Below are positions 22,037-22,756 of a stretch of DNA of 32,118 bases, piece by piece. The stretch is taken from IMG/VR virus record IMGVR_UViG_641736163_000005, one strand, 5' to 3'. The stretch's first letter is position 1; each line of letters begins with the position of its first letter. The stretch is from a virus (Duplodnaviria; Heunggongvirae; Uroviricota; Caudoviricetes). The position numbers and the translations under genes are program-made. The notes under the pieces are model-generated. The model did not search any database. It had not been told where the DNA came from and saw only the letters and a program-made list of their open reading frames with translations.

Positions 22037-22641
22037 GCAACCTCACTTCTGCTGTTTCGCAGTTTTTTAAGTTTCTGTTGATACTCCGCCTTGATGGCCC
22101 TGCACTCTTCGACAGTCCAGCGATAGCGGTTATGGTTTGATTCGATTTCCTCTACTGCTTCCTGCCCGATGCGGCTAATCAGTTCGACGCGATACGGAAC
22201 GAGATTTCCGCTTTTGTGCTGGTTGCACACCACGCATTGCTTGTGAATATTGCGTTCATCAAATCGGAGTTGAGGTGCCGCAGCAGTTGTCCGGTAATGT
22301 CCGGCATCCCACTGAGCAGACGTGAGCGTTCCGCACGAGATACATGGTAAGTCGCGGTCTCTTTCTCTGATGAAGGCGTTTACGGCTTGTTGGGCTTGTT
22401 TAATCCAGTAACTGCGGGGCTTTAAGGCGAGTTTTCGAATCTTCAGTTTATCTTTCTGTTTCTGCTCCTCTCGTCGTCGTTTCTTCTCTGCTGCTTTTTC
22501 CGCTTTTTCGCGTTCTTTACTTCGTCGTTCGAGTGCTAATTGAGTTCCGTGTTCCGGGCAGCACCACCACTGATTTGAGAATGCCGGGTGAAACCATTCC
22601 TTGCATATTTTGCATTTCCTTCGCGCTGGTTTAGCCATCAT
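22033..22641 (-). CDS. ninG: NinG (Rap) recombination protein
   Basis: 202 aa [65 protein letters not shown]...; matches lambda NinG. Confidence 0.9.
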
Positions 22642-22756
22642 CTTCTTCCTCGTAGATTGAGCTATTCGGATCGCTCATCAGTTCTGCACAGCAGTTAGCG
22701 CACGTTAAAGCTCGCTCGACGCTTTCTTGTTCGTAACTTCGATTTTGGTCAATCAC
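22631..22756 (-). CDS. ninF: NinF, shortened (41 aa, GTG start)
   Basis: Hand translation: (V)[40 protein letters not shown]; matches lambda NinF but lacks about 15 internal residues. Confidence 0.45.

Follow-up and report, generated by a model that had tools for sequence, protein, structure and literature searches.

In bacteriophage lambda, ninF ('Nin 56') lies between ninE and ninG at positions 42269-42439 of J02459 and, by annotation and translation, encodes a protein of 56 aa. Its GTG start overlaps the stop codon of ninE, and its own stop codon falls within the start of ninG, with an overlap of 11 nt (42429 vs 42439). Such interlinking of nin genes by overlapping stops and starts is credited in PMC10695390 to Kröger and Hobom (1982), and it can be seen directly in lambda as well as in the DNA analyzed here. 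Lambda still forms plaques when its entire nin region is removed, and a CRISPRi map of this phage showed ninF to be non-essential once Q was supplied in trans (PMC10695390). In the lambda interactome, NinF is listed as 'unknown', and its yeast two-hybrid hits are A, M and U only (PMC3224144). A functional assignment for NinF was not found in the literature that we searched.

We analyzed a 32,118-nucleotide stretch of DNA from a virus of the class Caudoviricetes (IMG/VR record IMGVR_UViG_641736163_000005), which is referred to below as the window. By translation and alignment, it contains a deletion allele of ninF (ninF delta-45) on the minus strand at 22631..22756, with a GTG start, 41 codons and a TAA stop. 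A sequence-only reading of this DNA had claimed that the product lacks about 15 central residues between the CANC and CAEL motifs. In a MAFFT nucleotide alignment with ninF of lambda, mEp213 and Stx2-converting phage 86, the window gene showed a single 45-column gap between near-identical flanks, and the residues missing from its product, GQKLHVLEVHVCEHC, correspond to exactly 15 codons (45 bp). The lambda NinF sequence used in that reading was also right (56 vs 41 aa in the window). All 22 residues before the gap are identical to those of lambda NinF, as are 17 of the 19 residues after it, with M49I and H50Y as the two differences. Three cysteines are left in the window protein vs five in lambda, and the conserved C34 is gone. 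In a protein search, entry P0001 was the same as the window product except for the convention used for the start residue (V or M).

The neighborhood of the gene is that of lambda ninF. On one side is ninE (22753..22935, minus strand, 60 aa), which matched the Pfam family NinE (PF05322) with E = 8e-44, and on the other is ninG (22033..22641, minus strand, 202 aa from the first ATG), which belongs to the Rap-like junction endonuclease family and matched NinG (PF05766) with E = 3e-89. The ninF GTG (22756-22754) and the ninE TGA (22755-22753) form a GTGA overlap at 22753-22756, as the sequence-only reading had noticed, and the ninF TAA (22633-22631) falls inside the ninG start, ATGATGGCTAA. The latter overlap spans 22631-22641 and measures 11 nt, the same as in lambda (8 nt if ninG is read from the second ATG). 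Further along, the ninG stop at 22033-22036 overlaps the start of a ninI-type Ser/Thr phosphatase gene (21365-22036); in lambda and mEp213 a 68-aa ninH gene lies between ninG and ninI, whereas the window has no ninH. Where lambda has ninC and ninD, the window has a gene for a Dam methyltransferase (22932-23459, going by the calls in relatives). Several tRNA genes are clustered just downstream of the gene for the Q antiterminator (20561-20794, minus strand). Rfam reported three genes in this cluster (20564-20635, 20642-20714 and 20723-20794), whereas ARAGORN reported only two, tRNA-Gly(TCC) and tRNA-Asn(GTT), with no assignment for the middle gene.

Among the matches listed for a 601-bp dam-to-ninG query, the closest full-length modules were those of mEp213, Stx2-converting phage 86 and vB_EcoP_phi367, which share the dam-ninE-ninF order and have 95.5-97.0% nucleotide identity to the query. 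Their NinF proteins are all 56 aa long, in contrast to the 41 aa in the window. Each of the 40 phage matches listed was broken at the deletion into two or more pieces (385 more records match). When the window product was compared with full-length NinF proteins by phmmer, E values ranged from 1e-15 to 1e-10. What is retained of the gene is thus homologous to lambda ninF, and the gene sits where its ortholog does, flanked by ninE and ninG and overlapping both. Intact NinF homologs from E. coli, Salmonella, Shigella and Klebsiella, which include two N-terminal types, are nearly all full length, and the 41-aa form is represented by a single sequence; thus, 56 aa is the ancestral length.

The GTG start, which the sequence-only reading had highlighted, proved not to be part of the change: ninF of lambda, mEp213 and Stx2-converting phage 86 starts at GTG within the same GTGA overlap, and this start is therefore ancestral. 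A Shine-Dalgarno-like motif, GAGGA, was read from the sequence at 22764..22768 (minus strand), 7 nt 5' of the ninF GTG and within the end of ninE, and the alignment shows these bases upstream of the GTG in lambda too. Two upstream GTG codons, at 22798 (55 aa) and 22786 (51 aa), were considered as starts and rejected, since only the GTG at 22756 has GAGGA 7 nt upstream, corresponds to the annotated start of lambda ninF, and coincides with an ATG in the alternative N-terminal type of NinF. Some gene callers chose upstream starts in relatives (P0009 and P0002), and the exact 55-aa product from the upstream GTG was absent from the protein collection. Two plus-strand ORFs, at 22588-22698 (36 aa) and 22727-22804 (25 aa), were dismissed as mechanical; they are antisense to conserved nin genes, and support for them was not found. 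A consensus scan of 21900-23600 revealed no excess of promoter-like or terminator-like sites over shuffled sequences and none at the junction, which argues against the creation or removal of a regulatory signal by the deletion. Rfam had no match in the nin region.

To describe what was deleted, we aligned 28 NinF sequences. They have two N-terminal types (one of which begins with MLSPSQSLQYQK) and several C-termini, with a strongly conserved core in between. Four cysteines, C19, C22, C34 and C38 in lambda numbering, were invariant or at least 90% conserved, and the only rows missing any of them were two deletion alleles, P0001 and P0041. C37, by comparison, is variable, and several Salmonella and E. 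coli alleles have CEASC or CSDSC, with Ser, at this place. Given the variability of C37 and the conservation of C38, the latter is probably the fourth of the putative zinc ligands, and the likely ligand spacing is then C-x2-C-x11-C-x3-C; the window allele, in which C-A-N-C-C is left, does not have this spacing. The Pfam NinF family (PF05810) covers 25 positions (lambda residues 18-42), of which the deletion takes 15, including C34 and the 11-residue spacer. Lambda NinF scored 47.5 bits against this model, whereas the window 41-aa product matched no Pfam family at E <= 0.01 and remained below the PF05810 gathering score of 27.5 bits.

The sequence-only reading had described NinF as a Cys-rich, zinc-finger-like protein. 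Cys-rich it is, with four conserved cysteines, but its likeness to zinc ribbons was detected only below threshold. Full-length NinF matched the Pfam double zinc ribbon DZR_2 with E = 0.004 and 17.3 bits, below the cut-off of 27, and in the PDB it matched zinc-binding ribosomal proteins, S14 type Z (E = 0.12) and bL32, at sub-threshold E values of 0.12-0.7. AlphaFold2 predicted two short beta bridges near the Cys motifs of a full-length homolog with low confidence (pLDDT 59.6). For the 41-aa protein it predicted one helix (residues 4-27) and no hairpin, with moderate confidence (pLDDT 72.4). With C34 and the entire spacer lost, the putative C-x2-C...C-x3-C zinc ribbon cannot form; hence, if NinF is a zinc ribbon, the 41-aa allele cannot be one.

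We then compared the cII-to-Q module in six carrier loci; the 12 contigs read had yielded five places, each in a different assembly. Mosaicism is usual in lambdoid prophages. There were no differences among the six loci in dam, ninE and ninF; in ninG there were none in four loci and one each in L007 and L008. Outside this segment the loci diverged. L005 had 22 differing sites in O and 37 in P (59 together) and 15 in the next ORF, and its left arm and immunity region were different as well (lambda-type exo, bet, gam, kil, cIII, N and repressor genes), whereas L007 and L008 differed in ninI at 19 sites. The window and L006 (E. albertii TW07627, GCA_000155105.1, CH991859.1) were 100.000% identical over 19,488 bases, and so the window derives from this E. 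albertii genome or from an identical one. An identical dam-ninE-ninF-ninG segment with differing flanks and immunity regions suggests one deletion event followed by mosaic recombination. These comparisons point to a single deletion, with the segment around it having entered at least three prophage backgrounds by recombination. L005, L007 and L008 are without the IS elements found in the window, which indicates that the deletion is older than, and independent of, the IS-mediated decay of the window prophage.

Several signs of this decay were observed. An IS21-family element (26261-28214; 1,954 bp; istA 340 aa, istB 260 aa), IS100-like according to the annotation of E. coli relatives, is inserted between cro and cII, about 30 bp past the cro stop, with a 5-bp target duplication, CCGAC. 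L007 and L008 have an empty site there, and lambda has nutR/tR1 at this place. The insertion probably severs the O-P-nin-Q operon from pR, and so the window copy of the prophage is likely defective. A copy of IS1 (18413-19179), whose target duplication measures about 9-10 bp (GCCTGCAGCA), interrupts a 613-aa DUF1737/SASA/DUF6645 esterase gene, which is left as ORFs 19212-20039 and 17308-18426; in L005, L007 and L008 this gene is a single ORF. A second IS1 copy (31366-32118), 99.7% identical to the first, reaches or exceeds the right end of the window and adjoins the left arm of the prophage.

As to the shortened protein itself, the loss of C34 and of the spacer between the two Cys pairs most likely leaves it without activity or with little of it, and ninF delta-45 would then be a null or crippled allele. 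Some residual function may nevertheless be retained: the deletion is in frame, the start, stop and acidic tail are kept, and the L005 prophage looks intact over 20 kb. A stronger version of this view, which we consider improbable though the most viable of the alternatives, is that the 41-aa protein is a functional miniature NinF, in which the SVERALTC segment and the ELMSDPN-acidic tail are active, the zinc hairpin is dispensable, and the deletion was neutral or selected. It could draw on the retained frame and GAGGA motif, on the conservation of the N- and C-terminal segments across the NinF family, and on the continuous helix predicted with moderate confidence by AlphaFold2. However, no part of the family is more strongly conserved than the deleted block, which is also the core of the Pfam model. 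It could also be argued that the allele has not decayed further in at least three prophage backgrounds, but the identical flanking DNA implies that the allele is young, and the absence of further decay therefore says little. Besides, frameshifted or truncated NinF forms persist too (P0053, P0058, P0062, P0063 and P0067), and the persistence of many such damaged alleles shows that ninF is often lost without consequence or altered in length.

We favor, with good confidence, the reading that ninF delta-45 is a derived allele that arose by one microhomology-type deletion, encodes an impaired product, and has persisted and spread among E. albertii prophages. According to this reading, a single in-frame deletion of 45 bp would have removed codons 23-37 of a 56-codon gene (or, equivalently, codons 22-36, owing to the ambiguity introduced by the repeat). 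The ninF genes of lambda and mEp213 have a direct repeat, ACTGC, at the two boundaries of this 45-bp segment (positions 62 and 107 of ninF). One copy is formed by codons for Asn-Cys and the other by codons for His-Cys, in the two cysteine motifs. The window keeps a single copy, which marks the deletion junction at 22691..22695 (minus strand), as located by the alignment gap and the lambda repeat pair. The in-frame gap and the ACTGC at both of its ends fit the earlier proposal of a deletion between short repeats, and the most likely event would be replication slippage, or another microhomology-mediated deletion, between the two pentamers. It should be noted, however, that lambda ninF (171 bp) contains 20 maximal direct-repeat pairs of at least 5 bp, six of them with in-frame spacing. 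ACTGC is thus one of about 20 such repeats, and the microhomology is consistent with slippage rather than proof of it. Folding of 70-nt DNA segments, on both strands and for both lambda and mEp213, revealed no hairpin joining the repeats (z -0.2 to +0.8 vs shuffled sequences), and hairpin-assisted slippage was rejected because the fold energies were no better than those of shuffled sequence.

It is also conceivable, but quite unlikely, that the deletion arose by recombination between divergent ninF alleles or prophages, with the repeats in the Cys codons as sites of an unequal or illegitimate crossover, and not by intramolecular slippage. The material for such an exchange is at hand, as lambdoid prophages are mosaic, the flanks of the segment show recombination breakpoints, and genomes of E. 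albertii and E. coli often hold several ninF copies, in up to four places per genome. However, the two sides of the junction match the same allele family equally well and a chimeric signature is not visible; at this resolution, moreover, the outcome would be the same as that of slippage.

Since the deletion keeps the reading frame, translation of ninF still stops at its original TAA, within the start region of ninG, and the interlinked ninE-ninF-ninG-ninI-Q chain remains intact. Any translational coupling to ninG, and any protection of Q from polarity, would likewise be preserved. The allele may have persisted because ninF is dispensable for plaque formation by lambda.

Other length variants of NinF were found in other backgrounds. 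P0019, on 8 contigs, has a 5-aa tandem duplication, HVLEV, which corresponds to an exact CATGTG repeat with 15-bp spacing in mEp213-type ninF, and P0041, found on one 1-kb ENA contig only, has a 10-aa in-frame deletion, VHVCEHCCAE. At the protein level, both are short indels that keep the frame and, like the deletion in the window, fall within the 25-residue core, but they represent separate events. The duplication at the CATGTG repeat suggests that the core is prone to slippage, and overall the core looks either slippage-prone or weakly constrained. One might go further and regard it as a hotspot of in-frame length changes (the 15-aa and 10-aa deletions and the 5-aa duplication) that are possibly under selection, the 41-aa form of E. 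albertii being, for example, an allele that allows adaptive escape or a helical mini-protein with a function. We regard this as very unlikely. If such changes were selected, NinF might be sensed by a host defense system or be mildly toxic.

The distribution of the junction was narrow. A 40-bp query centered on the junction, searched by megablast with a 28-base word so that only deleted alleles could match it, matched none of 5,426 complete E. coli genomes, 819 of which had a ninF match of any kind, and none of 50,697 phage records. An exact 32-base junction pattern was absent from GTDB species representatives and from JGI metagenome contigs, and was present in one IMG/VR viral contig; in a 451-bp comparison, this contig was identical to the window wherever the two could be aligned. 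P0001 was the sole 41-aa NinF entry in the protein search, and the source names of its 12 contigs are all E. albertii. An artefact of sequencing or assembly, such as a collapse between repeats, has practically no credence as an explanation of the deletion: its position between short repeats and the lack of a junction match outside E. albertii in five sequence collections would be expected of one, but a 5-bp repeat is far too short for assembly collapse, the same junction occurs on the 12 contigs and also on an IMG/VR contig, and the five places shown represent five assemblies (GCA_000155105.1, GCA_020443845.1, GCA_028807295.1, GCA_013061385.1 and GCA_002965745.1) with differing flanks. The 41-aa ninF allele is real and inherited, and so far it is confined to E. 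albertii prophages.

The allele is already known, as it is deposited in public databases and annotated by NCBI as 'protein ninF'. P0001 carries the names 'protein ninF [Escherichia albertii NBRC 107761 = DSM 17582]' and 'protein NinF [Escherichia albertii]', as well as 'Conserved domain protein, Escherichia albertii (strain TW07627)'. Thus, profile-based annotation with PF05810 misses the 41-aa NinF, whereas NCBI names it correctly. Because ninF is dispensable and has no assigned function, one more shortened or defective allele matters very little; ninF delta-45 is an ordinary allele that changes nothing about lambdoid biology. Should a NinF phenotype ever be found, this natural NinF without its putative zinc core would be a possible control. 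Independent of that, the allele is a natural marker for the dam-ninE-ninF-ninG module as it moves among E. albertii prophages.
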